Assembly (NCBI GenBank): GCA_044353195.1
Contig: JBILCJ010000001.1
Span: 9,213-73,212, forward strand
Source: Bacteroidia bacterium
GTDB lineage: Bacteria > Bacteroidota > Bacteroidia > B-17B0 > Aurantibacillaceae
DNA length: 64,000 nucleotides
Reading direction: 5' to 3'
In this document: positions 7,897 to 58,751 of the stretch, piece after piece
How positions within the stretch are numbered: the stretch's first letter is position 1
Layout: each line of letters begins with the position of its first letter
Notes under the pieces: generated by a model
Database searches by the model: none
What the model saw: the letters and a program-made list of their open reading frames with translations, nothing else
What the model was told of the DNA's origin: nothing
Program-made: the position numbers and the translations under genes

Positions 7897-10800
7897 ATGG
7901 ATAACTGTAGAATATTAAATAGAATTGTACAAATAAATATTGCCAACGTAAAGTATACGGATTTAGAGTTGAGTGGTAATACATGTTTTGTTGGCACAAA
8001 TAATTTCGGAAAAACATCGTTGCAACGAGCTATTTTGTTTTTTTATAGTGCAAATACTAGAGGGTTAGGTATTTCTCCTTCACAAAAACCGTTTGACGAA
8101 CATTACTTTAAATTCGAAAACTCTTATTTAATATATGAAATACGTACAGAAGATAAACCTTTTTTTGTTATTGTTTATCGTCACAACAAATTAGTGTTCC
8201 GTTTTGTAGATGCTGAATACTCACCCGATTTTTTCTTTAATGAAAATGACGAGGCCTTAAAAATTAAAGAAGTTATTTCTGGCTTTGATAAACGTGGTGT
8301 ATTTTATTCAGGACAAATTGATACGTTTGAACGATATCGTAATATCTTGTACGGAACTGAAACAGATAAGTCATTAACTAAATTTCATTTACTAAAAGGG
8401 AATGAAAAATATCAAAATATACCTAAATCTATTACTAATGTTTTCTTAAGTTCTAAAAGTAGTATCGATAGCCGTTTTATTAAAGATTTCATTGCCAACT
8501 CGCTTTCAACTGAGAATAGTAGTATTAAGTTAGAGCAAGTTGATAGACAATTACGTCAGTTTAATGAAAAATATTCTGACATCGAAACGTATCTAAAAAA
8601 GGAAACACAACAACTGATTGAATTTATTGATAAAAAATATGACCAAGTGCACATGCTGAAAGGTGCGCAAATGGAAATGGCTGATAAACTTGGTAGCAGT
8701 TTACGTTATGCTGAAACGCAGAACGAAACTGTTATTAAAGCATCGCAAGCAAAACAAGAAGAACTAGATAAAATAACAGAAGCTCACGACGATCAAAAAA
8801 TCGCTTTAGAAGAAAAGCAAAAGGATGTGCGTGAAGAAATTGGTTATTATGATAGAACGATTCGTGAAGCCAATAAGAAATTAAAAGAGTACAAAGAGAA
8901 AAATATAGACGAAGCGGTTGGGAAAAATGCAGAAAGAGATAAGCTTCAAGTAGAATATAATATTGCAAGACGAGAATATGAATCTTTAACGAGTAATGTT
9001 CAAAGTATTGAAATGAAATATGCTTCATTAGTTGAGCAATTAAGAAATGATAAAACTGCTTATGTAAATAAAATAAACTCTAAAACAAGTGAAATTTTTA
9101 ATCACTATAACGAGTTACAATTATTGCAAAAAAACGAATACAGTAAAAAAGATGTTGAATTAAAACAAAAACGAGAAGAAGCTTTAACAGAAATCAACGC
9201 TGATATTACGACCAAACAAATTGAGTTTAATGAATTAAAGGCAGAGGAAAAAGTTATTCGTAATACACGGTTTTATGAAACTGAAATCAAGGCTCAAGAA
9301 ACGGAATTAGCTGATTTAAGAGCGATTAATTATAAGAATAAAAGTGAATTAGCTATTAAAAATAATCTTGTTCAAAGTAATCAAAAGGAATGGGAAAATT
9401 TAGAGCTTCGACTTAAAACATCTTTGAATAATCAAATTCAGATCACTAATAATGAAATTATTAGGGTTAAAACTGAGATTAAAGCAATCGAAGAGAAATT
9501 GAATGTTCAGCATGATGCCTTGTATGGTTATTTAGAAAAAAATGTAAAAGACTGGCATACAACTATAGGTAAAGTAGTAAATGAAGAATTACTATTTCGT
9601 ACAGATTTAAATCCTTCAAAAGTTGATGATAAAGGATTGTCAATGTATGGCATTTCTTTAAAGTTGGATGATGTAAAAGTTGTTTCAAAAACAATTGAAG
9701 AATACCAATTTGAAAAGAACGAAAGACTTGCTATTATTAGAGATTTAGAAGAATCGTTAAATCAATTTCAAGGAACAAACACTGAAGAGAAAATGTTGGC
9801 TGCTGATAAATTCGGTAAGCAATTAGGGGAATTGAAAGAAGATTTAAAAGTGTTGACTTACTCTTTAGAGTTAGCAGAAAAACGCGAGAAAAAATTAATT
9901 CTTGAATTAGAGGATTGGAAACAACGTGCTAGTAAAGAAGTAGAAGAATCTTTGACTGGCAACAAACAAAAAGTAAATCTAATCGAAGAAGAATTAGCAA
10001 TCTTAAATAAAAAGAAAAATAATTTATTGAATGATTTCAATACTCAACTCGATAAATTAAAAGCTTTTAATGATGAGCGTTTAGCTGATTTGAAAGGAAG
10101 GCAAGAAACTGAAATTAGTGAGTTAGAAGTTGAGAAGAAAAATCAAGTTAAAGAATACGAGGAAAAAGAAACAGAGTTAAGCAACGAAAAAGAAACTAAT
10201 TTTAAAGCGAAAGGTGTTGATAGTAAAGAAATAAAACGAATAGATGCTAAAATTAAAGAACTTCAAGATGCGTTAAAAGAAATTGATCAATACTCGCAAG
10301 TTGTTAGCGATTACTTGAAAGATAAACGCGAAATTTTTGATAAACTTCCTGATTTAATTCAGAAAAAAGAGGAATACGTTAAAACAGCTAATGATTTAAC
10401 TAACGAGTTAGAAGAAATTTCTCGCAAGTTTAATATCAAACGTATGGAGTTGAATAAACAAAAACGTGCGTTTGAAGAAGAATTAATTGAGTTTAATAAC
10501 GGTATCAATTATTTTACTAAAAACTTCCGTGAAACTCCTGTGTTTAATAAGTATGCAGACATCATAGATAGAGCAGAACCTAAAAAAACAAATTATAGTG
10601 TCATGGATTTGTGCACTCAATTATTAAAAAATGATTCGCACTTTAATGAAGAGTACACTGCTTTTCAACGATACGTTAATGAGTTTTCTGGTAAGTTTAG
10701 GATTGATAACCATTTTAATTTCATCATTCGTAATGATGCTACACAAGGTGAATACGAGCGCTTTGCTCAAAATTTACGTTCGTTTATAAATGAAAACAAA

Positions 10801-11580
10801 ATCGAATTATCCATTGCAGAAACAGCTACTCAAATTGGGTTAGTAACAGATAGTATCGCCACTAAAGTGAAGGAACTGAGTGGGCAAAAAGATAAAATTC
10901 AACACATCATTACTCTTATTGCAGAAGACTTTAAAAAAGCTGAATTCGAGCAATCTAAACTTATTGAATTTATTAAAATTCGATTAGAGGAATCGGATAA
11001 TAAAGTCTATAAATTATTGAAACGTATTCAAGAATTTAGAGAAGAAAATGGATTAGTGTATAACGAAGGTTTATTTAATACTGATTTTGCGACTCATAAA
11101 AATCGTGAAATTAGTAACAGAGCTGTTAAATTATTAGATCAATTAAGAACTGCAATTAAAGAACAAGAACAAGAAGAAATTCGTTTGCAAGATCTGTTTG
11201 AATTGAAATTTAATATCAAAGAAGGTTTAAACGAAACAGGTTGGACTCATAAAATTGATAGTATTGGAAGTACTGGAACAGACGTGCTAGTAAAAGCGAT
11301 TATTTATATCACACTATTACACGTATTTATAAAAGAATCATCTCACCGAAGTAGTTCTGATTTTAGAGTTCATTGTATAATTGATGAAGTTGGACAAATT
11401 TCAGCTCATTATTTACGAGAATTATTACGCTTTGCAAAAGATAGAAATATTATGATGATTAATGGTTTACCAAATAAATCTGGCTTAGAGGCACATTATA
11501 AATATACCTACCAATTCCGTAGAGAAGAAAACAATAATGTGCGAATCTTCCCAAGTATTGTAACAGAAGTTGAAGCCTAA
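7897..11580 (+). CDS. SMC/MukB/JetC-like split-head ABC ATPase with long coiled coils
   Basis: Walker A is GTNNFGKTS (nt 7993-8019). About 900 aa of K/E/L-rich heptad-like sequence is interrupted by a non-coiled segment at aa ~539-601 (nt ~9511-9700). Walker B/D-loop is HCIIDEVGQ (nt 11371-11397). Confidence 0.8.
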   Translation: MDNCRILNRIVQINIANVKYTDLELSGNTCFVGTNNFGKTSLQRAILFFYSANTRGLGISPSQKPFDEHYFKFENSYLIYEIRTEDKPFFVIVYRHNKLVFRFVDAEYSPDFFFNENDEALKIKEVISGFDKRGVFYSGQIDTFERYRNILYGTETDKSLTKFHLLKGNEKYQNIPKSITNVFLSSKSSIDSRFIKDFIANSLSTENSSIKLEQVDRQLRQFNEKYSDIETYLKKETQQLIEFIDKKYDQVHMLKGAQMEMADKLGSSLRYAETQNETVIKASQAKQEELDKITEAHDDQKIALEEKQKDVREEIGYYDRTIREANKKLKEYKEKNIDEAVGKNAERDKLQVEYNIARREYESLTSNVQSIEMKYASLVEQLRNDKTAYVNKINSKTSEIFNHYNELQLLQKNEYSKKDVELKQKREEALTEINADITTKQIEFNELKAEEKVIRNTRFYETEIKAQETELADLRAINYKNKSELAIKNNLVQSNQKEWENLELRLKTSLNNQIQITNNEIIRVKTEIKAIEEKLNVQHDALYGYLEKNVKDWHTTIGKVVNEELLFRTDLNPSKVDDKGLSMYGISLKLDDVKVVSKTIEEYQFEKNERLAIIRDLEESLNQFQGTNTEEKMLAADKFGKQLGELKEDLKVLTYSLELAEKREKKLILELEDWKQRASKEVEESLTGNKQKVNLIEEELAILNKKKNNLLNDFNTQLDKLKAFNDERLADLKGRQETEISELEVEKKNQVKEYEEKETELSNEKETNFKAKGVDSKEIKRIDAKIKELQDALKEIDQYSQVVSDYLKDKREIFDKLPDLIQKKEEYVKTANDLTNELEEISRKFNIKRMELNKQKRAFEEELIEFNNGINYFTKNFRETPVFNKYADIIDRAEPKKTNYSVMDLCTQLLKNDSHFNEEYTAFQRYVNEFSGKFRIDNHFNFIIRNDATQGEYERFAQNLRSFINENKIELSIAETATQIGLVTDSIATKVKELSGQKDKIQHIITLIAEDFKKAEFEQSKLIEFIKIRLEESDNKVYKLLKRIQEFREENGLVYNEGLFNTDFATHKNREISNRAVKLLDQLRTAIKEQEQEEIRLQDLFELKFNIKEGLNETGWTHKIDSIGSTGTDVLVKAIIYITLLHVFIKESSHRSSSDFRVHCIIDEVGQISAHYLRELLRFAKDRNIMMINGLPNKSGLEAHYKYTYQFRREENNNVRIFPSIVTEVEA

Positions 11581-47991: not shown

Positions 47992-49536
47992 ATGAAAAAA
48001 TTAATTGTATTAGCTTCATTTGTTGCCGTTGTTACAGGTTGTAACAAAAAGGTAGGTGAGTTAGTTGGCGTAGAAGGAAGAGAAAAATGGTTCCAGCCAG
48101 ATCCATTCGGCACACTTTATATTCCAATGGGTAGTTACCACATGGGGCCAAGCGATCAAGAGATTACAATGGCTCATACAGCTAAGTCAAAAATGGTTTC
48201 TGTACAAGCATTTTATATTGATGATTCTGAAATTTCTAATAATGAATATCGTCAATTTGTATATTGGGTGAGAGATTCAATTGCGCGTAAATTATTAGCA
48301 AATGGATCAGGTCCAGACGCTGAAGATTTTCAAATTTCTCAAGAGGATTTCTTGTCTATGTTTCCTGTTTATAAAGGAGATAATAATCTGCAAGATCCAT
48401 ATATCAATTGGGCGACTAAAATCAAATGGGATAGCGATGATGAAGATTACCGTTTAGATTTACAACCTTTATATTTACCTGAAGGTGAACGTTTTTATAA
48501 TAGAAAAGAAATTGATACACGTAAATTAAATTACGAGTATTATAGAATTGATATTAAATTGGCAGCATCTAAATACAATCGTTTTGTGCCACAAAAATCA
48601 CCAGACGTGCAAGACGCTTCGCATGCATACAAGCAATCTGATTACATGAATGGTGTTCACACCAATGAAGGTCAAAATGGAGTTCCGGGTGGATTATCTA
48701 ATGCAGTTGGAGATCCAAGTAAGGATCCTAAGACATTAGGTACGTATGATGTTACAGACCAAAAATCTGTTGGTAATGGTAATTATACTTCAAATGTTCG
48801 TAAGAGTGTTGACCGTTCTGTATTTGTATTAAAAGATGTAATTAATGTGTATCCTGATACATTAGCTTGGGTTCACGATTTCACTTACTCATTTAATGAA
48901 CCAATGACTAATATGTATTTTTGGCATCCATCTTATGATGATTATCCTGTTGTTGGAGTTACTTGGAAACAAGCGAGAGCATTTAGTATATGGAGATCTA
49001 ACTTATTGAATAATTATTTAATTGGCACAGAGCAATCAATTGTGAATGATTTCCGTTTACCAACTGAATCTGAGTGGGAATATGCTGCTCGTGGAGGAAA
49101 TGATTTATCTCCATACCCTTGGGGCGGACCATATATTCGTAACGCTAAAGGTTGTTTCTTAGGCAACTTTAAGCCAATGAGAGGTTCATATATTGATGAT
49201 GGTGGATTTCAATCAGTTTATATTTATTCATATAATCCTAATGATTACGGTTTATATTGTATGGCAGGAAATGTTTCAGAGTGGACAAATAATGCATTCG
49301 ACGAATCATCGTATGACTTTTCTCACGATTTAAATCCCGATTATACTTATGAAGCACAAGATAAGGATGCTAATGTTTTGAAGCGTAAAGTAATTCGTGG
49401 TGGTTCTTGGAAAGATGTAGGCTATTATTTACAAGTAAGTACTCGTACTTACGAATACCAAGATACTGCAAAATGTTATATAGGATTCCGTAATGTGATG
49501 ACTTATTTAGGTCGTGCTAAGGGAGATGAAATTTAA
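47992..49536 (+). CDS. gldK: Gliding motility/T9SS lipoprotein GldK (FGE-sulfatase fold)
   Basis: Lipobox VVTGC. SUMF1/FGE-like blocks (YPVVGVTWKQARAF, LPTESEWEYAARGG, VIRGGSW). Confidence 0.93.
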   Translation: MKKLIVLASFVAVVTGCNKKVGELVGVEGREKWFQPDPFGTLYIPMGSYHMGPSDQEITMAHTAKSKMVSVQAFYIDDSEISNNEYRQFVYWVRDSIARKLLANGSGPDAEDFQISQEDFLSMFPVYKGDNNLQDPYINWATKIKWDSDDEDYRLDLQPLYLPEGERFYNRKEIDTRKLNYEYYRIDIKLAASKYNRFVPQKSPDVQDASHAYKQSDYMNGVHTNEGQNGVPGGLSNAVGDPSKDPKTLGTYDVTDQKSVGNGNYTSNVRKSVDRSVFVLKDVINVYPDTLAWVHDFTYSFNEPMTNMYFWHPSYDDYPVVGVTWKQARAFSIWRSNLLNNYLIGTEQSIVNDFRLPTESEWEYAARGGNDLSPYPWGGPYIRNAKGCFLGNFKPMRGSYIDDGGFQSVYIYSYNPNDYGLYCMAGNVSEWTNNAFDESSYDFSHDLNPDYTYEAQDKDANVLKRKVIRGGSWKDVGYYLQVSTRTYEYQDTAKCYIGFRNVMTYLGRAKGDEI

Positions 49537-49598
49537 TAAACACACATAAACACAAATAAACAAACACAAAAACTCAACTAATTAAAAACTAAACAACT

Positions 49599-50396
49599 AT
49601 GAGCAAACTTCCTAAAGTAACCGGTTTTAAAAAGTATTTACACTTAGCATCATGTTTTGGTGCAGCAGTTGTAATTGTTGGAGCCTTATTTAAAATTATG
49701 CACTGGCCAGGTGCTTCTGCAGCATTAATTGCAGGTCTTGGTACTGAAGCTGTACTATTTATTTTATTCGGTTTAGATATACCTCATGAGGAATACGATT
49801 GGTCTTTAGCTTACCCTGAATTAGGTGGCATGGGCGGACATGAAGACGAAGAATCTTCTGAACATAGTAATTTACCTTTAACAAATCAATTGGATAATAT
49901 GCTTGCTGAAGCAAAAATAGGACCAGAATTAATCGAAAGTTTAGGAATGGGTATGCGTTCATTAAGTGATAATGCATCTAAAATGGGAGATTTATCAAAT
50001 GCTCATTTAGCAACTAATGAATACGTTGATAGCGTTAGATCGGCGTCTAAAAACGTATCTAGTTTAGCTGATAGCTATTCAAAAGCGGCAGAATCTATGG
50101 TTAGTTTAGCAGCTTCAAACGATGTTAGTAGTTCTATTGGTGATTCTTTAGGCAAGGTTTCTAGTAACTTAAACGCATTGAATGCTACTTATGAGTTACA
50201 ATTGCAAGGTTCAAAAAATCATTTAGAAGCAACTGAGAAATTTTATGGTGGTTTAGCTGATTTAATGAAAAATTTACATGATTCTGTTGATGATACTAAA
50301 AAATATCGTCAAGAAATGTCTACATTATCTTCTAATTTAACTGCATTAAACGGTATCTACGGAAACATGTTAGGTGCAATGAATTATAACAAATAA
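49599..50396 (+). CDS. gldL: Gliding motility/T9SS protein GldL
   Basis: Two N-terminal TM helices with GAAVVIVGALFKIMHWPGA. 265 aa. Confidence 0.9.
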   Translation: MSKLPKVTGFKKYLHLASCFGAAVVIVGALFKIMHWPGASAALIAGLGTEAVLFILFGLDIPHEEYDWSLAYPELGGMGGHEDEESSEHSNLPLTNQLDNMLAEAKIGPELIESLGMGMRSLSDNASKMGDLSNAHLATNEYVDSVRSASKNVSSLADSYSKAAESMVSLAASNDVSSSIGDSLGKVSSNLNALNATYELQLQGSKNHLEATEKFYGGLADLMKNLHDSVDDTKKYRQEMSTLSSNLTALNGIYGNMLGAMNYNK

Positions 50397-50486
50397 TTGT
50401 AAATAAATAGTAATGTCACGTTCATTTTTTGAAATGACGATTTAAAATTCATTAAAATATTAATCTAAAAGTAATTATAAAATAAT

Positions 50487-52154
50487 ATGGGAGGCGGTAA
50501 AGAAACCCCAAGACAAAAGATGATTGGTATGATGTATCTCGTACTAACAGCACTCTTGGCAATGAATACATCAAAACAAGTTTTACAAGGATATTTGGCA
50601 GTAAATGAAAGTTTGGCTAAATCTAAAGAAAACTTAAACGAAAACAACATTCGGACAGCTAAATCTTTTGAGGCATCTATTAATGGTAATGCCGGAGCAA
50701 GACCTTATTACGAAAAAGCTGTTGAAGCTCAAAAAGAAATCGAAGAGGTTTTTAAATATATTGGAAAAGTTAGAACTAATGTAGTTGTTCACACTGAGCC
50801 TGCAACCACTGGAGGCAATGAAAAAGTAGCTGATACTTTAAATTTGCGTCGTATGGAAAAAATTGACGACTATGATATTCCAAGTCATGTATTAGGTTTA
50901 GGAGAACCCAAAGCTCCAGAAAAGGGACCTTTAACAGCATATGAATTGAGAGGTAAATTAACGAGTCTACATGACAAGTTGATTTCTATGGTTGAAACCA
51001 TGCAAAAAGATCCAAAAACTAAGTTGTTAGATGACGATTACCAAGGTATTAAAAAGAAAATAGGTTCAATTAAGCCAGTTGATAGTAAACGTTTAGAAGA
51101 TGGTATTGAATTTAATTGGGAAATGGATAATTTCTATCATTTACCATTAGCCGCAGTTTATACAAGTTTCAATAAAATTCAAAACGATTTAAAAAACGTT
51201 GAGGCTGAAATTTTACAAGTATTTTCAGGTGCTAGTGGGAAATTAGCTATTAAATTTGACCATTTAGAAGCAAAGGTAATTGCACCTTCTTCATACATCC
51301 AAGCTGGACAACCTTATAAAGCTGATATTTTATTAGTTGCATCTTCTTCAAAAGCAGCTAAAGGCGATTTAGAGTTTTTGATTGGAGCAGATTCTGCTTC
51401 TGGTTCAGGTGGAACTTTATTAGAAACAGTTGAAAATGGTATCGGTAAATATTCTGCTGGAACAGGTGGGCAAGGTGAGCAAACATTTAAAGGTGTAATC
51501 AAGTTCAAAAAGCCAGATGGTTCTTTTGATCGTTATCCTTTTTCCGCTACGTATATGGTTGCTGCTCCGGCTGTAGCTGTTGAGGCTGAAAAAATGAATG
51601 TATTTTATATCGGTGTTGATAATCCAATTGCAGTTTCTGCTGCTGGCGTATCGCCCACTGATTTAATTGTTAATGCAACAGGTGGTGGATGTACCAAAAC
51701 TGGTGGTGCTGGTGGTAAGTTTGTTTTAAAATTTACAACAGTTGGAGAATGCGAAATTTCTGTTTCTGCAAAAACGAAAGATGGAACAAAACCTCAAGGT
51801 CCGGCAAAAAAGTTTCGTGTAAAGAAAATTCCTGATCCAGTAGCTAAAGTTGGTGGTAAAACAGGTAATGTAGACATGAAAAAATCTGAATTAGCCTCTA
51901 TTGCTGGTGTTGGAGCTGAGTTAGCTGGATTCGACTTTGATGCCAAATTCATTGTAGTGTCATTTGAATTAAGTGCGGTTGTTAAAGGTAACTTAAAAAG
52001 CGAGGCTTGTACAGGCAATAATTTATCTTCTGGGGCAAAGGCTGTTTTAGCTTCAGCCGGAGTTGGAAGTAAAATATTTGTAGATAATGTTAAAGCTAAA
52101 GGCCCTGATGGTACTATCAGAAATATTCCTGGAGTAACAATAAAAGTAAAATAA
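50487..52154 (+). CDS. gldM: Gliding motility/T9SS protein GldM
   Basis: The N-terminus MGGGKETPRQKMIGMMYLVLTALLAMN is the canonical GldM start. 555 aa. Confidence 0.93.
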   Translation: MGGGKETPRQKMIGMMYLVLTALLAMNTSKQVLQGYLAVNESLAKSKENLNENNIRTAKSFEASINGNAGARPYYEKAVEAQKEIEEVFKYIGKVRTNVVVHTEPATTGGNEKVADTLNLRRMEKIDDYDIPSHVLGLGEPKAPEKGPLTAYELRGKLTSLHDKLISMVETMQKDPKTKLLDDDYQGIKKKIGSIKPVDSKRLEDGIEFNWEMDNFYHLPLAAVYTSFNKIQNDLKNVEAEILQVFSGASGKLAIKFDHLEAKVIAPSSYIQAGQPYKADILLVASSSKAAKGDLEFLIGADSASGSGGTLLETVENGIGKYSAGTGGQGEQTFKGVIKFKKPDGSFDRYPFSATYMVAAPAVAVEAEKMNVFYIGVDNPIAVSAAGVSPTDLIVNATGGGCTKTGGAGGKFVLKFTTVGECEISVSAKTKDGTKPQGPAKKFRVKKIPDPVAKVGGKTGNVDMKKSELASIAGVGAELAGFDFDAKFIVVSFELSAVVKGNLKSEACTGNNLSSGAKAVLASAGVGSKIFVDNVKAKGPDGTIRNIPGVTIKVK

Positions 52155-52157
52155 ATA

Positions 52158-53009
52158 ATGATGAAAAAGTTTAAACATATTCTATTGTGCGCTGCTGCCA
52201 TTTTGGTTACAACGAATATTGATGCGCAACCTAGTATTTTCCAACCAGGAGATTACAAAGATGGTGTATATGATAAGGAAAATTCAACTAACCGACGTGT
52301 TATACCTTATACGCATTTGCGTGAAGCTGATGTAACATGGGAGAAACGCGTATGGAGAGAAATAGATATGCGTGAAAAACAAAATCAACAATTATATTTC
52401 CCTTTAGAGATTGGCGTAAGTCGAATCTCATTACTACAAGTATTGTTTAAGTATATTTTGAAGAATGAGTTGATTGCTTTTAGCGATGAAGAATTTCAAG
52501 TTCAATTGGAGCCTTCTGTTATTCGTAATAAAATTGTTAAAATTGATACTGTAGAGCAAATGTCTTATCTCGAAGATGGAACCGAAGTTGCAACTCGTGT
52601 TGGCACTTCTGATTCTACTTGGATGTACAGACAATTCCGAAAAATTAGATTAAAAGAAGATTGGTTTTTTGATAAACAAAAGTCGGTTTTAGAGGTTCGT
52701 ATTATAGGTATGGGGATTTACACTTATGATGAAGAAAAAGAGGCTCCAAAAGAACAGTTTTGGGTTTATTTCCCATCATGTCGTAAATTTTTCGCTAAGC
52801 ACGAAGTGTATAATCCTAAAAATGATTCAGAACGAAGAACATTTGAAGATATATTTTGGAAGCGCCAATTTGCTAGTGTAATTACGAAAGAAACGAATGT
52901 GTTTGATAGACAAATTTCTGAGTACTCAAAAGGTATTGATGCATTGCTAGAATCTGACCGTATTAAAAATGATATTTTTACGTGGGAGCATGATCAATGG
53001 CATTTTTAA
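52158..53009 (+). CDS. gldN: Gliding motility/T9SS protein GldN
   Basis: Signal peptide, starts 3 nt after the gldM stop, 283 aa. The call rests on synteny plus family-like sequence. Confidence 0.88.
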   Translation: MMKKFKHILLCAAAILVTTNIDAQPSIFQPGDYKDGVYDKENSTNRRVIPYTHLREADVTWEKRVWREIDMREKQNQQLYFPLEIGVSRISLLQVLFKYILKNELIAFSDEEFQVQLEPSVIRNKIVKIDTVEQMSYLEDGTEVATRVGTSDSTWMYRQFRKIRLKEDWFFDKQKSVLEVRIIGMGIYTYDEEKEAPKEQFWVYFPSCRKFFAKHEVYNPKNDSERRTFEDIFWKRQFASVITKETNVFDRQISEYSKGIDALLESDRIKNDIFTWEHDQWHF

Positions 53010-53109: not shown

Positions 53110-54384
53110 TTAGTCTTTGAATAAAGGAAATTTACTCATCATGGTATTTATTTTCAACTTTAGTTTTGCAATTTCTTTAGGATTGTCTTTATGTTTTAAT
53201 GCAGAGTCAATATAATCTACCACTTTTAAGCAATCTTTTTCATTCAATCCTCTGCTTGTAATAGCTGGTGTGCCGATACGAATCCCAGAGGTAACAAAAG
53301 GAGATTTGTCATCAAAAGGAACCATGTTTTTATTTACTGTAATATCAACTTCCCCTAATGCTTTTTCAGCTTCTTTACCAGTAAGTTTTTTATTTCTTAA
53401 ATCAATTAACATACAATGATTATCTGTGCCTCCTGATATAATTTTATAACCCTTTTCTGTTAGTGCTTTTGCCATCACTTGAGCATTTTTAATTACTTGA
53501 ACACAATAATGCATGTATTCATCACTTAAACATTCTCCGTATGCTACTGCTTTGGCTGCTATAACGTGTTCTAAAGGTCCACCTTGCGTTCCAGGAAAAA
53601 CACCCATATCCAAACAGGCACTCATCATTTTTAATTCTCCCTTCAGCGTTTTTTCACCCATAGGATTTTCAAAATCTTTCCCCATCATAATCATTCCACC
53701 TCTTGGTCCTCTTAACGTTTTATGAGTAGTGGTTGTTACGATATGACAATGCGGTAAAGGATCATTTAAAATACCTTTTGCAATTAAACCAGATGGATGG
53801 GAAATATCTGCTAATAATAAAGCACCTACTGAATCGGCAATTTTTCTTAACCTAGCATAATCCCAATCTCTAGAATATGCTGAAGCTCCACAAATTATCA
53901 TTTTTGGCTTTTCTTTTTTAGCTATCTCCTCAACTTTATTGTAATTTACTTTACCCGTTTTTTCATCCACACCATAAAATGTAGCGCGGTATAATTTTCC
54001 GGAAAAATTTACCGGCGAGCCGTGTGTTAAATGTCCACCATGTGATAAATCAAACCCTAGAATAGTATCGCCAGGTTTAAGACAAGCCAACATTACAGCT
54101 GCATTAGCTTGCGCGCCTGAATGTGGTTGTACATTTACCCATGCTGCTCCAAATAATTCTTTAGCTCTATCAATTGCCAATTGCTCTACTTTATCAACCA
54201 CTTCGCAACCACCATAATAACGCTTGTTTGGCAACCCCTCTGCATATTTATTTGTTAATACGCTACCCATTGCTTTCATGACTTGCTCGCTCACATAATT
54301 TTCGCTGGCAATAAGTTCAATACCTCGAGTTTGGCGTTCTTTTTCTTCTTTAATCAATTTAAAAATAGTTGTGTCTTTTTTCAT
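53110..54384 (-). CDS. glyA: Serine hydroxymethyltransferase
   Basis: [17 protein letters not shown]-lysine motif. 424 aa. Confidence 0.95.
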
Positions 54385-54389
54385 AGTAT

Positions 54390-54869
54390 TTATTTTTTTT
54401 CAATATTAAATTTAGTGTAAAGTGTTGAGGTTGCTATGATGAAAAATGCAACTAATGGAGATTCTGCAATTCCCATTAACCATCTACTAAATGTATATTC
54501 TTCACCTGATAATTGATTATTAATAATGTAATTATAAAGCATAATAAAACTCGATAATGTAAATAATAAGCTATAAATATAAACAATCCACCTTGTTATT
54601 TTTTTATTGTCGCAAATAATTTTAACGGAGTAAAATGAAACCGTAAAATACATGACAACATAAAGAACTGTTAATGGATATTTAGCGTAATACAAAGTTT
54701 CATAATTATAATTAGACAGAAACGTTAAGCTTTTTGAAATGAATATATCGTTATTTTTGTAATATGTTTTGTATAATTGATTGTTTATATTTACAAATAC
54801 AAATTCTCTGCTAAAACCAAGAAAAGCGAAAACACTTAAAATGCTTAAATATTTCAAGGCCATTTTCAT
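54390..54869 (-). CDS. Exosortase F system-associated membrane protein (putative)
   Basis: 159-aa polytopic protein whose start overlaps the xrtF stop by 4 nt (ATGA). The assignment is by synteny with xrtF. Confidence 0.6.
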
Positions 54870-55399
54870 ATTTTTCCTTTTGCTTTTGAGAATTTATTTA
54901 CCCATACCATCCATAAGAAAAACACAAAACTGTAGGCGATAAATGTAAATGTATAGGTGTGATTAAATTCGAGATAAGATGGTTTGTAATAAGCAATAAG
55001 GGATAAAGAAACTATTCTACAAAGATTTAAGCTATACACTAAAATTATTCCTATCGGTAGATACCATAATTTATGTTTAAAATATCCAGGATAAGCAATA
55101 ATAAAGATGGCAAATAAAAACATGAGTGTAATTCCATTACACGGTCCGCCTATCCAAACTCCACTAGACCCGTCAATTCCAAACACTTGAAAATCATTAA
55201 TTTCTCTACTAGAGAAGGTTTTATAGTTTAAAAAAGATAAAATCAGTTCACAAGCATTTATAATTATACGAATGAAATATTGATCAAAACCCGTATATTT
55301 TTTTAAAATTAACTCATAAATAAAATAAAAAAACACATAAAGCAAACCTGCTTTTAATAAGAATTTATGAAATGTATTTAGTGTTATGAATTTTACCAA
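54866..55399 (-). CDS. xrtF: Exosortase family protein XrtF
   Basis: 177-aa polytopic protein with candidate Cys/Arg/His catalytic residues in membrane context (GGPCNGITLMF, NLCRIVSL, FNHTY). Size and neighbour fit the Flavobacteriia XrtF subtype. Confidence 0.75.
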   Translation of the reverse strand: MVKFITLNTFHKFLLKAGLLYVFFYFIYELILKKYTGFDQYFIRIIINACELILSFLNYKTFSSREINDFQVFGIDGSSGVWIGGPCNGITLMFLFAIFIIAYPGYFKHKLWYLPIGIILVYSLNLCRIVSLSLIAYYKPSYLEFNHTYTFTFIAYSFVFFLWMVWVNKFSKAKGKI

Positions 55400-55487
55400 G
55401 TTACGTGATATTCTATGTGTTTATGTTTATTATAGATTTTCATCGAGTATTGATATAAATTCGAATTTATAATAGTTAACCAGGGTA

Positions 55488-55697
55488 TTATATCTTTGTG
55501 TTCTTTTTAGAGTAGAGTTTTGAACCTCCATATATAATACCTGCTGCAATAAGGAGAGAAATCCCTCCATCAATAGGAATACAAGGTGGTGGCCAACAGA
55601 TTGGCCCACCACCACCTGGAGGAGGGGGTGGCCCTGCAAAACAAGAGGCAGAGGCCGTTAAGATAAAAAAGCCTAAAAGTTTTGATGTTAATTTCAT
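55488..55697 (-). CDS. Small secreted precursor with exosortase-type C-terminal sorting signal (candidate XrtF substrate)
   Basis: Hand-checked translation gives a signal peptide (MKLTSKLLGFFILTASASCFA), a core (GPPPPPGGGGPICWPPPCIP), then IDGG, a TM helix (ISLLIAAGIIYGG) and a basic tail (SKLYSKKNTKI). It is the only one of three overlapping same-strand ORFs with a coherent architecture. Confidence 0.6.
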   Translation of the reverse strand: MKLTSKLLGFFILTASASCFAGPPPPPGGGGPICWPPPCIPIDGGISLLIAAGIIYGGSKLYSKKNTKI

Positions 55698-55812: not shown

Positions 55813-58191
55813 TTGAGCGAAAAGAACAATATTTCAAATTTAAATGTAAATGACCTTAAAGTAATTTGGAGGATTTTTGCAAAAAATTGGTATATTCCAG
55901 TTATAATTGTTGCGGTGTTGTATGTGGTAGGCTATTTTTATATTTATAAGTTAACAAATGTTTATCAAGCTTCAGTAGAACTTCTAAAATCAAATGACAC
56001 GTATTATAAGGAAAATTTAATTACTGACAATAATACTAGTTTTTATGGCGGTACTCAGAGTTTCATTGATAACTCTAATGAAATGCGAATCATTAAGTCT
56101 TATGATTTGATGAAAGAAACTATTGATAAATTAAAAGATAAATTACATGTCTCTTATTTTATTATTGGAAGGGTTAGAACAACAGAGCAATTTTCGGGCA
56201 ATCCATTTAAGATTAATGTCAAAAATATTAATCCACGCTTAAATGAAATGCGTATTAATTTCAGGATTCTTGATTATGATAAATTTCAGTTAAAGTATAA
56301 TTTAAATGGTGAGGATAAATTAAAAGTTGGAAAGTTTGGAGAAGATTGTATCGATTTAGATTTTAATTTTTTTATTGAAAGAGACGGGAATTTTAATCGT
56401 AACTCATTGTCGCAATTGTCGCAAATAGAATACCAATTTAGTGTGCACGATTTAAATAATTTGGTTTATAATTATCAACAAGGGCTTCAGGTATTGAATC
56501 CTGATTACACAAATGTTTTAGTATTATCATTAAATGATATTCTACCCGAGAGAGCGGTTTTGATTTTAGACACATTATCAAGGTCATACATAAACAGATC
56601 GCTCAATGCACGTTTTGATATTAATGAGCGCACAGTAACTTACATTGATAAGCAATTAGAGGAAGTTCGTTCTTCGTTAAAAGACGTGGAAGATACTATG
56701 CAGAATTACAAAAAAGACAACTCTATTTTAGATTTAGAATGGGAGAAAACTGATTTTTTTGCAAAACTTTCTTCTTATGATGATCAAAAATCTAAATTGA
56801 AATTAAAGATAGACGCAATCAATGATTTGGAGAAATACATAATTGAAGATAAAGATCCTCAGTTTTTACCACCAAATGTTTTTTTAGTTGATAATGATAA
56901 TTTTTTAATCTCTTCGGTTAAAGAATTATATTCTTCTCAAATAGAGTTAGGTAAAGTTTTAAGTTCATCAAAAGACATTAACCCAAATGTGATAGAAATT
57001 AAACAAAAAATCAAGCAGTTAAAACAAAGCATGTTGGTTTATGTCAATAATACGAGAAACGCCAGTTATAAAATCATTGAAAATTTAAATAGCGAAATTG
57101 GAAGTTATGTTGGCGAGATAAAAACAATTCCAAAAAAGCAGCGGGAAATTTTAAACATACAAAGAAAAGTAAACGTAAATGAAGAAATGTTTAACTTTTT
57201 ATTGCAAAAGAAAGCTAATACAAAAATAGCCAAAGCATCTATTGTTCCAGAAATTAATGTGATTGATAGCCCAAGAAATATAGGTGTTGTTAGTCCAGAT
57301 AGAAAATCAATTATTTCCAAATTTATCACAACGGGATTGATTATTTCTATTATTATTATTTTACTAAGAGTCTTTTTCTTTACGACTATTCAAACAGTGG
57401 AAGAATTGGCAGAAAAAACACATTTGCCAATAATAGGTGATTTACCTTTTCAGAAAAATTTACATAATTTTGGTTTTGCTGTTGAAACGAATCCTAACTC
57501 ATTCGTTTCTGAAGCATTTCGAACACTACGAACTAATCTGCAATATGTATTTCTTAACGCCCCAAAAAGCACCATTTTAGTAACTTCTAATGGGCCAGGC
57601 GAAGGTAAGACATTTACAACCATTAATATTGCCGCCATATTAGCTAAAGGAGGAAAGCGAGTTGTACTGTTAGAGTTAGATTTGCATAAACCTCGAATTC
57701 AAAAAGCACTTGAACTTAATGCGGATATTGGAATTAGTACATTTATGGTTGGTGCTAACACCTTGGATGAAATTGTAAAAAACACTCAGATTAAAAACCT
57801 TTATGCCATTTTATCTGGACCAATACCTCCAAATCCTTCTGACTTAGTTCTATCTGATAAATTGAAAGAATTGATGGACTATGCAAAACAAAACTTTGAC
57901 TATGTCTTAATTGATACGCCGCCATTAGGATTATTATCAGATGCCGCTTATTTAATGCAGTATTCTGATATTAATCTATTTGTGTTAAATGCAAAACATG
58001 CTAATAAACACGTTTTAAACTTGTTTCATAAAACAGTTGCAGATAATTCAATTAAACATGTTTACTTGGTTTTGAATGGTGTAAAACGCCGGAAAAATAA
58101 ATATTATTATTCGAGATACGGTTATGGCTATGGTTACGGCTATGGTTACGGCTACGGATATGGTTACGGATATAATAAAGATAAGTCTTAA
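55813..58191 (+). CDS. wzc: Polysaccharide biosynthesis tyrosine autokinase (Wzz/GumC domain plus BY-kinase)
   Basis: N-terminal Wzz-type TM and periplasmic coiled region, second TM, Walker A SNGPGEGKTFTT, Walker A' VVLLELDL, Walker B VLIDTPP, and a C-terminal Tyr cluster. TTG start. Confidence 0.88.
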   Translation: MSEKNNISNLNVNDLKVIWRIFAKNWYIPVIIVAVLYVVGYFYIYKLTNVYQASVELLKSNDTYYKENLITDNNTSFYGGTQSFIDNSNEMRIIKSYDLMKETIDKLKDKLHVSYFIIGRVRTTEQFSGNPFKINVKNINPRLNEMRINFRILDYDKFQLKYNLNGEDKLKVGKFGEDCIDLDFNFFIERDGNFNRNSLSQLSQIEYQFSVHDLNNLVYNYQQGLQVLNPDYTNVLVLSLNDILPERAVLILDTLSRSYINRSLNARFDINERTVTYIDKQLEEVRSSLKDVEDTMQNYKKDNSILDLEWEKTDFFAKLSSYDDQKSKLKLKIDAINDLEKYIIEDKDPQFLPPNVFLVDNDNFLISSVKELYSSQIELGKVLSSSKDINPNVIEIKQKIKQLKQSMLVYVNNTRNASYKIIENLNSEIGSYVGEIKTIPKKQREILNIQRKVNVNEEMFNFLLQKKANTKIAKASIVPEINVIDSPRNIGVVSPDRKSIISKFITTGLIISIIIILLRVFFFTTIQTVEELAEKTHLPIIGDLPFQKNLHNFGFAVETNPNSFVSEAFRTLRTNLQYVFLNAPKSTILVTSNGPGEGKTFTTINIAAILAKGGKRVVLLELDLHKPRIQKALELNADIGISTFMVGANTLDEIVKNTQIKNLYAILSGPIPPNPSDLVLSDKLKELMDYAKQNFDYVLIDTPPLGLLSDAAYLMQYSDINLFVLNAKHANKHVLNLFHKTVADNSIKHVYLVLNGVKRRKNKYYYSRYGYGYGYGYGYGYGYGYGYNKDKS
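58117..58173 (+). repeat. Tandem TAY-GGN hexanucleotide repeat encoding (YG)9Y
   Basis: The sequence reads tac ggt tat ggc tat ggt tac ggc tat ggt tac ggc tac gga tat ggt tac gga tat. The 12-nt unit tatggttacggc occurs twice in tandem. Confidence 0.9.
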
Positions 58192-58259
58192 TTATAAATT
58201 ATATTCTATTTAAACTATTGCAACTTCATGTGAGTGAGGCTGCGAAGCTTTTGAGAAAA

Positions 58260-58751
58260 ATGAAATACTGGTATGCTGTATATGTTAATGTTAGACACGA
58301 AAAAAAAGTGGTCGAAAAATTACTTCAACAAAATGTGGAAGCTTATTCGCCTACCATAAAAAAACAGCAGCAATGGAGCGATAGAAAAAAGTGGGTGGAG
58401 TTTCCAATGTTAACAGGGTATGTTTTTGTTAAAATAAATTTAATTGAAAAAGAAAAAGTATTGTTTAATCAGAGTGTATTTTCTTTTGTAAAATTTAATA
58501 ACGAAGAAGCTAAAATTAGAGACGAAGAAATTGATATTTTGAAATCGATTGAAAAAACTGGGTACGATGTTACATCTGAAGTAAAAGGTTTAAAACTAAA
58601 CGATGAAGTTGAAATTTTACAAGGATTTTTAAAAGGACATAAGGGTATCTTAATTCAATTTGGTTCTGAAGATTATGTGCAAATTGAATTGTTAAGCTTA
58701 AAACAAAATGTTAAAGTTAAGGTTCCGAAAAACATCTTGAAACTTAATTAA
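58260..58751 (+). CDS. upxY: UpxY family (NusG-like) transcription antiterminator
   Basis: MKYWYAVYVNVRHEKKV is an NGN-domain start, so I prefer ATG 58260 over the listed TTG 58218. A KOW-like segment (NDEVEILQGFLKGHKGILIQ) is present. Confidence 0.82.
   Translation: MKYWYAVYVNVRHEKKVVEKLLQQNVEAYSPTIKKQQQWSDRKKWVEFPMLTGYVFVKINLIEKEKVLFNQSVFSFVKFNNEEAKIRDEEIDILKSIEKTGYDVTSEVKGLKLNDEVEILQGFLKGHKGILIQFGSEDYVQIELLSLKQNVKVKVPKNILKLN

Follow-up and report, generated by a model that had tools for sequence, protein, structure and literature searches.

The 64-kb stretch of Bacteroidia DNA analysed here (contig JBILCJ010000001.1; hereafter the window, to which all strands and coordinates refer) probably encodes a dedicated one-enzyme, one-target protein-sorting module, in which exosortase X (XrtX) would process a single adjacent PID-CTERM mini-protein within a Wzc-dependent polysaccharide locus. 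The module consists of three minus-strand genes in the order 69-aa open reading frame (ORF), 88-nt spacer, 177-aa exosortase ORF, and 159-aa membrane protein ORF, the start of the last overlapping the exosortase stop codon by ATGA. This arrangement had been set out in a preliminary description of the DNA, and its coordinates and sequence features of the three-gene module agree with the window base for base. The features of the module are as follows.

55488..55697, minus strand: PID-CTERM mini-protein precursor gene, 69 aa, ATG start, stop codon included (NF046080, PF28310)
55635..55697, minus strand: predicted Sec signal peptide, residues 1 to 21, MKLTSKLLGFFILTASASCFA, with cleavage after Ala21 predicted from the sequence
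55578..55634, minus strand: Pro/Gly-rich core of the predicted mature peptide, residues 22 to 40, GPPPPPGGGGPICWPPPCI, with CWPPPC at 55581-55598
55491..55577, minus strand: PID-CTERM signal, residues 41 to 69, made up of PIDGG, the helix ISLLIAAGIIYGG, and the tail SKLYSKKNTKI
55400..55487, minus strand: spacer between the small gene and xrtX, 88 nt
54866..55399, minus strand: exosortase X (XrtX), 177 aa, TTG start (NF046081)
55139-55141 (Cys87), 55016-55018 (Arg128), and 54959-54961 (His147), minus strand: candidate catalytic residues of XrtX
54390..54869, minus strand: 159-aa polytopic membrane protein, divergent homologue of the XrtX-associated membrane protein (NF046082, below cutoff)

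The 69-aa product (MKLTSKLLGFFILTASASCFAGPPPPPGGGGPICWPPPCIPIDGGISLLIAAGIIYGGSKLYSKKNTKI) passes the PID-CTERM protein-sorting domain model NF046080 (NCBIfam release 20, the source of the family models used) with 40.6 bits against a cutoff of 26 and an E value of 1.5e-10; the match spans residues 41 to 64 of the protein and positions 2 to 25 of the 25 profile positions. The PEP-CTERM model (TIGR02595) gives no match to the small protein at an E value of 1 or below. Both results bear out the earlier claim of a C-terminal tripartite exosortase-type signal in which P-I-D replaces P-E-P. Public annotation assigns PF28310 (PID_CTERM) to the identical protein and to near-identical ones, and "PID-CTERM protein-sorting domain-containing protein" is already the name of one NCBI record. 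A Pfam search gave no match for the small protein or for the partner membrane protein because the release searched predates PF28310 and PF26628, and this null result does not reflect absence of the family. No other PID-CTERM-like C terminus (P-[IVLM]-D, helix, basic tail) was found in any frame of the window.

The hydropathy profile of the small protein has two hydrophobic segments, a signal-like one at the N terminus and one at the C terminus. A basic n-region, a hydrophobic h-region, and an Ala residue at position –1 can be read from the N-terminal sequence, which fits a signal peptidase I site, and this Ala21 is kept in at least 90% of the homologues. A lipoprotein signal involving Cys19 was considered and rejected, as Cys19 is not conserved whereas the Ala at –1 is. 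Cuts after Ala21 and near Asp43 would leave 22 residues, composed of 10 Pro, 5 Gly, 3 Ile, 2 Cys, 1 Trp, and 1 Asp. This predicted remainder is consistent with the mature part of approximately 20 residues with two Cys proposed in the preliminary description, and both Cys residues are conserved in the homologues.

The enzyme passes the exosortase X model NF046081 with 173.1 bits, 3 bits above the cutoff of 170, and the general exosortase/archaeosortase signature TIGR04178 with 54.1 bits (cutoff, 23). The next-best exosortase models are XrtF (TIGR04128; 91.7 bits, cutoff 90), XrtH (51.2 bits), and XrtY (48.1 bits), and XrtX is the best model for all 32 sampled exosortase homologues. By the current curated models the enzyme is classified as XrtX, the nearest relative of XrtF. 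Older public labels of these enzymes are "exosortase family protein XrtF" or "archaeosortase/exosortase family protein," and the preliminary description had likewise called the enzyme XrtF. That label is in line with the older classification and with the passed XrtF cutoff, but XrtX is the better model by 81 bits, and no XrtF-partner model matches the 159-aa protein at an E value of 1 or below. The system that had been deduced from sequence alone is right in substance, and its enzyme label is off only since the classification has moved on.

Cys87, Arg128, and His147 are invariant in three independent alignments, two of which comprise 32 and 30 homologues; a catalytic triad of just these residue types has been inferred for exosortases and archaeosortases (Haft 2023 bioRxiv). 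An AlphaFold2 model of XrtX shows a compact helical membrane protein with a short β-hairpin at residues 61 to 83 (predicted local distance difference test score, 78.8; predicted template modelling [TM] score, 0.69). A fold search with this model gave no match, the best hit being a meaningless one to heliorhodopsin (E value, 0.5; TM score, about 0.2), and a sequence search of the PDB with XrtX gave no match at an E value of 1 or below. In public gene calls (JGI, ENA), the exosortase begins at an internal GTG and is 156 aa long, the segment in question being 55336-55399 on the minus strand. The TTG at 55399, which yields 177 aa, appears to be the better and likely start and the GTG form too short, because Phe13 and Tyr21, both upstream of the internal GTG, are invariant in the homologues and the alignment to the XrtX model starts at residue 10.

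The 159-aa protein, which contains four hydrophobic segments, aligns end to end with the XrtX-associated membrane protein model NF046082 (E value, 8.6e-9), with a score of 35.3 bits that lies below the cutoff of 75. Homologues from the same clade (from loci L013 to L089) behave in the same way, 9 of 10 scoring 20 to 36 bits and one giving no match. The model appears to miss this branch of metagenome-assembled genomes (MAGs) despite full-length alignment and perfect synteny.

The association of the three genes was traced from both sides. On the enzyme side, one genome per GTDB species was scanned, 223 genomes were found to have a relative, and the best 80 of these, all of them Bacteroidota/Bacteroidia MAGs, were examined. 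The hidden Markov model of the small protein identifies exactly one ORF, located directly upstream of xrtX on the same strand, in 78 of the 80 loci; the partner gene lies directly downstream of xrtX in all 80, glyA is found downstream in 78, a Wzc homologue is encoded within ±4 kb in 76, and a UpxY/NusG-like gene is present in 46. On the small-protein side, a metagenome scan yielded 80 loci, 72 of which have enough sequence to judge: xrtX is directly downstream of the small gene in 67 of these 72, and a Wzc homologue occurs in 28 of the 32 loci having at least 4 kb of upstream sequence. Small-protein matches number exactly one per locus, in genomes and metagenomes alike. A sorting system is regarded as dedicated when the enzyme and target genes are consecutive (Haft 2023 bioRxiv); the linkage observed here holds in both directions and has this one-to-one form. 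A conserved small ORF at the same position beside the exosortase, which had been named beforehand as a test of the proposal, is thus present in these 78 genomes and 67 metagenome loci.

The two remaining genome loci (L045 and L046) retain the normal arrangement of Wzc, xrtX, the partner, and glyA but lack an adjacent small gene; only approximately 155 bp separate Wzc from xrtX in L045 (L045:3866-4022). Either the target has been relocated in these genomes or the enzyme persists without a target. The spacer between the small gene and xrtX measures 1 to 35 nt in other lineages, or the reading frames abut. An attenuator or terminator in the 88-nt spacer of the window was considered and rejected, with 0 terminator-like sites found in it and a fold z score of 0.49, which does not indicate significant RNA structure.

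Homologues of the small protein form 247 clusters at an E value of 0.01 or below, nearly all of them 67 to 76 aa long. Among 30 homologues, the invariant residues comprise C34, W35, P36, P37, P38, and C39 in the core and P41, D43, G44, G45, L49, A51, A52, G57, and K60 in the signal part. CWPPPC is found in 75 of the 78 genome loci with the small gene, and the motif P-[IV]-D-[GN]-G in 75 of 75; the copies in L033 and L090 are truncated, and L083 has the variant CWPPSAC. Across the 28-codon core in 76 loci, the entropies of codon positions 1, 2, and 3 are 0.42, 0.29, and 1.40 bits, respectively, and the invariant CWPPPC is encoded with all four Pro codons and both Cys codons. Because third-position entropy is high and synonymous codons turn over at invariant residues, selection acts on the small protein and not on the DNA. 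The 69-aa ORF is a real gene, far beyond a chance reading frame.

A profile search of 1.84 billion representatives extended the family to 1928 clusters at 50% identity (E value, ≤1e-3), the best 150 of which are all 53 to 130 aa long and match at the C terminus. A second search, with divergent members, gave 2340 clusters (90% identity), and lengths among the best 120 run from 70 to 111 aa. No larger protein with a PID-CTERM tail was found among the approximately 270 best-scoring representatives or in approximately 1.4 Mb of loci, so that a tiny passenger characterises the whole family, at least as far as the members listed (approximately 270 of roughly 1900 to 2300 clusters) show. Distant members keep the predicted signal peptide, a Pro/Gly-rich stretch of 10 to 50 residues, P-I-D-G-G, the helix, and the basic tail; in these proteins CWPPPC becomes CWPHC, CFPNPC, or CGPAPC, or Cys is lacking altogether. 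The curated NF046080 domain begins at P41 and leaves the Cys pair outside. By these comparisons the CWPPPC loop appears as a trait of a large subclade that includes the window protein.

Other gene orders also occur. Some Flavobacteriales-type MAGs carry the same PPCWPPPCVPIDGG core in a small gene that follows a gene for a DUF8202 (PF26628) protein of approximately 1000 aa (for instance, L094:1876-5237, L097:1938-5231, and L099:6945-10237; further loci are L136, L137, L143, L155, L171, and L174), and in some lineages no exosortase was found within 5 to 10 kb of such DUF8202-linked small genes. DUF8202 is a second recurrent partner of the small gene; some of these proteins bear a type IX secretion system (T9SS) C-terminal domain, and some bear Laminin_G_3/G8 domains. 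The DUF8202-small gene pair closes a glycosyltransferase cluster, and glyA directly follows the small gene even in loci without xrtX and the partner (L094:5318-6598; L099:10310-11602). The synteny with glyA may be inherited or may reflect a functional link. The order Wzc, DUF8202, small gene, xrtX, and partner is found in 9 of 43 metagenome loci, and L117 has xrtX upstream of the DUF8202 gene. No DUF8202 homologue was found in the window. Two more distant members of the small-protein family lie in unrelated contexts. The polysaccharide context is the common thread of the differing gene orders.

On the basis of these features, the following mechanism is proposed. The 69-aa precursor would be exported by Sec and its signal peptide removed after Ala21, and the C-terminal helix and basic tail would hold the precursor in the inner membrane. 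XrtX, a putative polytopic membrane cysteine protease/transpeptidase with a Cys87-Arg128-His147 triad, would then recognise P-I-D-G-G at the membrane surface and, with the 159-aa partner, remove the helix and tail. By analogy with the archaeosortase ArtA, the Pro-rich peptide of approximately 20 residues (GPPPPPGGGGPICWPPPCIP...) would probably be passed on to an acceptor, lipid or glycan, that is linked to the adjacent capsule/exopolysaccharide (EPS) pathway, and the product would act in the envelope/EPS pathway served by Wzc. The Cys pair of the peptide likely forms a small disulphide loop. The analysis shows the genes, the family membership, the conservation of the putative catalytic residues, the linkage, and the selection on the small protein; both cleavages, as well as export, the disulphide, and the acceptor, are inferred.

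Several points weigh against a dedicated PID-CTERM/XrtX sorting module. Two of the 80 genomes carry xrtX and the partner without an adjacent small gene, and enzyme-target adjacency is typical of the clade of the window and not universal, because small genes with the same core exist elsewhere without an exosortase within 5 to 10 kb. The partner falls below its curated cutoff both in the window and across the clade. The mature part often lacks Ser, Thr, and Lys and so offers no evident site for the glycosylation commonly proposed for PEP-CTERM proteins. No experiment on cleavage, attachment, or expression of any PID-CTERM protein was found in the literature searched. Furthermore, the transmembrane helix is, in sequence comparisons, as conserved as the presumed cargo, which would also fit a stable membrane subunit. 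In that case, the small protein would be an uncleaved single-pass subunit or regulator assembling with XrtX, the partner, and/or Wzc, and its likeness to a sorting signal would be only architectural. Such strong conservation of the helix and its GG and KxLY flanks (L49, A51, A52, G57, and K60) would be unusual in a discarded segment, the cargo is too small for a usual functional surface protein, and the synteny with Wzc is tight. However, strong conservation of the signal is also expected under coevolution of one enzyme with one target; the motif, helix, basic tail, predicted signal peptide, and adjacent exosortase with an intact triad correspond to the criteria of a dedicated system; and related small genes located far from any exosortase or Wzc fit a diffusible enzyme-substrate relation better than an obligate complex. 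An uncleaved subunit is considered unlikely.

What the module would deliver is a separate question. The short Pro-rich peptide might itself be the cargo in place of a folded protein, and XrtX would attach it, as a peptide cap, primer, or anchor for a glycan, either to a lipid or to the capsule/EPS polymer of the Wzc machinery; this proposal is tentative and its odds are rather low. Alternatively, XrtX could be a peptidase only, freeing a Pro-rich, disulphide-looped peptide of approximately 20 residues (a signal, an inhibitor, or a matrix component) from a precursor resembling those of ribosomally synthesized and posttranslationally modified peptides. In favour of this, the precursor is tiny and has a highly conserved CWPPPC core, the gene order of precursor followed by processing enzyme resembles that of peptide maturation operons, and the one-step transpeptidase nature of exosortases is still open (Haft 2023 bioRxiv). 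Against this, the conserved module has no peptide-specific exporter or modification enzyme, with only glyA and Wzc as conserved neighbours; distant members lose both Cys residues and keep the Pro-rich stretch and the PID-CTERM signal; and the characterised relatives (ArtA and the PEP-CTERM systems) yield anchored products, which makes release of a free peptide quite improbable. Finally, the ORF is short, of low complexity, and annotated as a "hypothetical protein," and the enzyme is labelled XrtF in public sources, all of which might suggest a chance frame upstream of an ordinary XrtF gene without a cognate target. This reading is refuted by the 247 close and about 1900 to 2300 distant homologue clusters, by the match to a curated model, by the synonymous codon turnover at invariant residues, and by the position kept in 78 of 80 genomes, and it can be given practically no weight.

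The sorting signal and the enzyme class are already known, being curated in NCBIfam (NF046080, NF046081, and NF046082) and Pfam (PF28310). The preliminary description had left open whether a sorting-signal model with the P-I-D motif existed; since it does, the novelty implied there does not stand. In the literature searched no description of PID-CTERM/XrtX was found, only unrelated uses of "xrtx" or "exosortase Xrt..". The module resembles the curated system in that the small protein and the exosortase pass their cutoffs and the third gene is a full-length homologue; it differs in that the uncultured, MAG-only clade of the window lies at the edge of the models (XrtX, +3 bits; partner, 20 to 36 bits against 75). 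The XrtF system of Flavobacterium johnsoniae is similarly built, with a short Bacteroidota exosortase (approximately 175 aa) followed by a small polytopic partner gene. This species requires XrtF and its partner (Fjoh_1448/1449) to form biofilms and colonise surfaces (PMC10936215). The XrtF target proteins are "not yet known" (PMC10936215, PMC12188702), in agreement with the earlier remark that XrtF has no known substrate; unlike XrtF, xrtX in the window has an adjacent predicted target gene.

With the PEP-CTERM/exosortase A system of Proteobacteria and cyanobacteria (EpsH/XrtA), the module shares the tripartite signal, a predicted signal peptide, the putative Cys-Arg-His triad, and an EPS locus containing a Wzc-like chain-length/tyrosine kinase protein; the Wzc of the window gives partial matches to the XrtA-associated kinase and chain-length models. 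The differences are the P-I-D-G-G motif, the single target per enzyme (XrtA has many), the cargo of 10 to 50 residues in place of a folded or Ser/Thr-rich protein, and the size of XrtX, approximately 177 aa compared with an enzyme of eight or more helices. ArtA of Haloferax volcanii, which acts on PGF-CTERM proteins, is alone in having been shown to couple the loss of the C-terminal helix to lipid attachment (Haft 2023 bioRxiv). Its enzyme family is homologous and shares the inferred triad, and ArtA is the basis of the mechanism proposed for XrtX, but ArtA is archaeal, recognises a different motif, and has large S-layer glycoprotein substrates, and the window XrtX scores 23 bits against an ArtA cutoff of 75. 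The MYXO-CTERM and JDVT-CTERM signals, among others, also have one or two conserved Cys residues just N-terminal to the helix, and in JDVT-CTERM, a dedicated system, the genes for enzyme and target lie side by side (Haft 2023 bioRxiv). Unlike PID-CTERM, however, these signals are cut by myxosortases, Rce1/CPBP-type glutamic intramembrane proteases and not exosortases, and the 25-residue curated PID-CTERM signal does not take in the Cys pair, which distant members have lost.

The genes flanking the module in the window are as follows.

53110..54384, minus strand: glyA, serine hydroxymethyltransferase (NF000586, 613 bits)
55813..58191, plus strand: Wzc-type polysaccharide co-polymerase/tyrosine autokinase, divergent, with a C-terminal (YG)n tail (TIGR01007)
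58218..58751, plus strand: UpxY-family transcription antiterminator, first gene of a polysaccharide biosynthesis/export operon (NF033644)

The Wzc-type gene passes TIGR01007 with 156.6 bits (cutoff, 108), which, together with the Wzc homologues in the 76 genomes, supports the placement of the module beside a Wzc-type EPS locus in the preliminary description. The antiterminator passes NF033644 with 112.9 bits (cutoff, 100). Downstream of it lie the acetamidino-sugar genes HisH and AglZ/HisF2 (320.8 bits; cutoff, 310), and the same polysaccharide operon contains Wzm/Wzt-like ABC exporter genes and a sugar dehydratase gene. The C terminus of Wzc (58105-58191, plus strand) is formed by an unusually regular Tyr-Gly repeat (YYYSRYGYGYGYGYGYGYGYGYGYNKDKS), presumably an atypical form of the autophosphorylated Tyr cluster, and a similar tail is present in the L045 homologue. 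A complete gldK-gldL-gldM-gldN operon (T9SS/gliding core; 47992-53009, plus strand) adjoins glyA and the XrtX module, and GldN lies within 4 kb of xrtX in 10 of the 80 related genomes. At 7897-11580 (plus strand), the window also encodes a 1227-aa DUF3584/AAA_15 (SMC-like ATPase) protein that is unrelated to the module.

Three points matter for annotation: XrtX is the appropriate name for the enzyme in this MAG clade, in place of XrtF; the 69-aa ORF is a genuine gene that ought to be kept and not discarded as short and hypothetical; and the partner scores under the present NF046082 cutoff. The prediction of exosortases dates from 2006, and the acceptor of the bacterial enzymes is still unknown (PMC10936215, PMC12188702, Haft 2023 bioRxiv). 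Among the relatives of XrtF, the XrtX module is the closest to have one obvious adjacent predicted substrate, and the predicted mature part of this substrate is small enough for direct mass spectrometry, which makes it a convenient experimental handle; such a minimal dedicated exosortase/substrate pair could make the exosortase acceptor tractable. If the peptide is indeed the cargo, this module would be the simplest place to find the acceptor of a bacterial exosortase and, by homology, would offer hints at the missing XrtF substrates in Flavobacterium.

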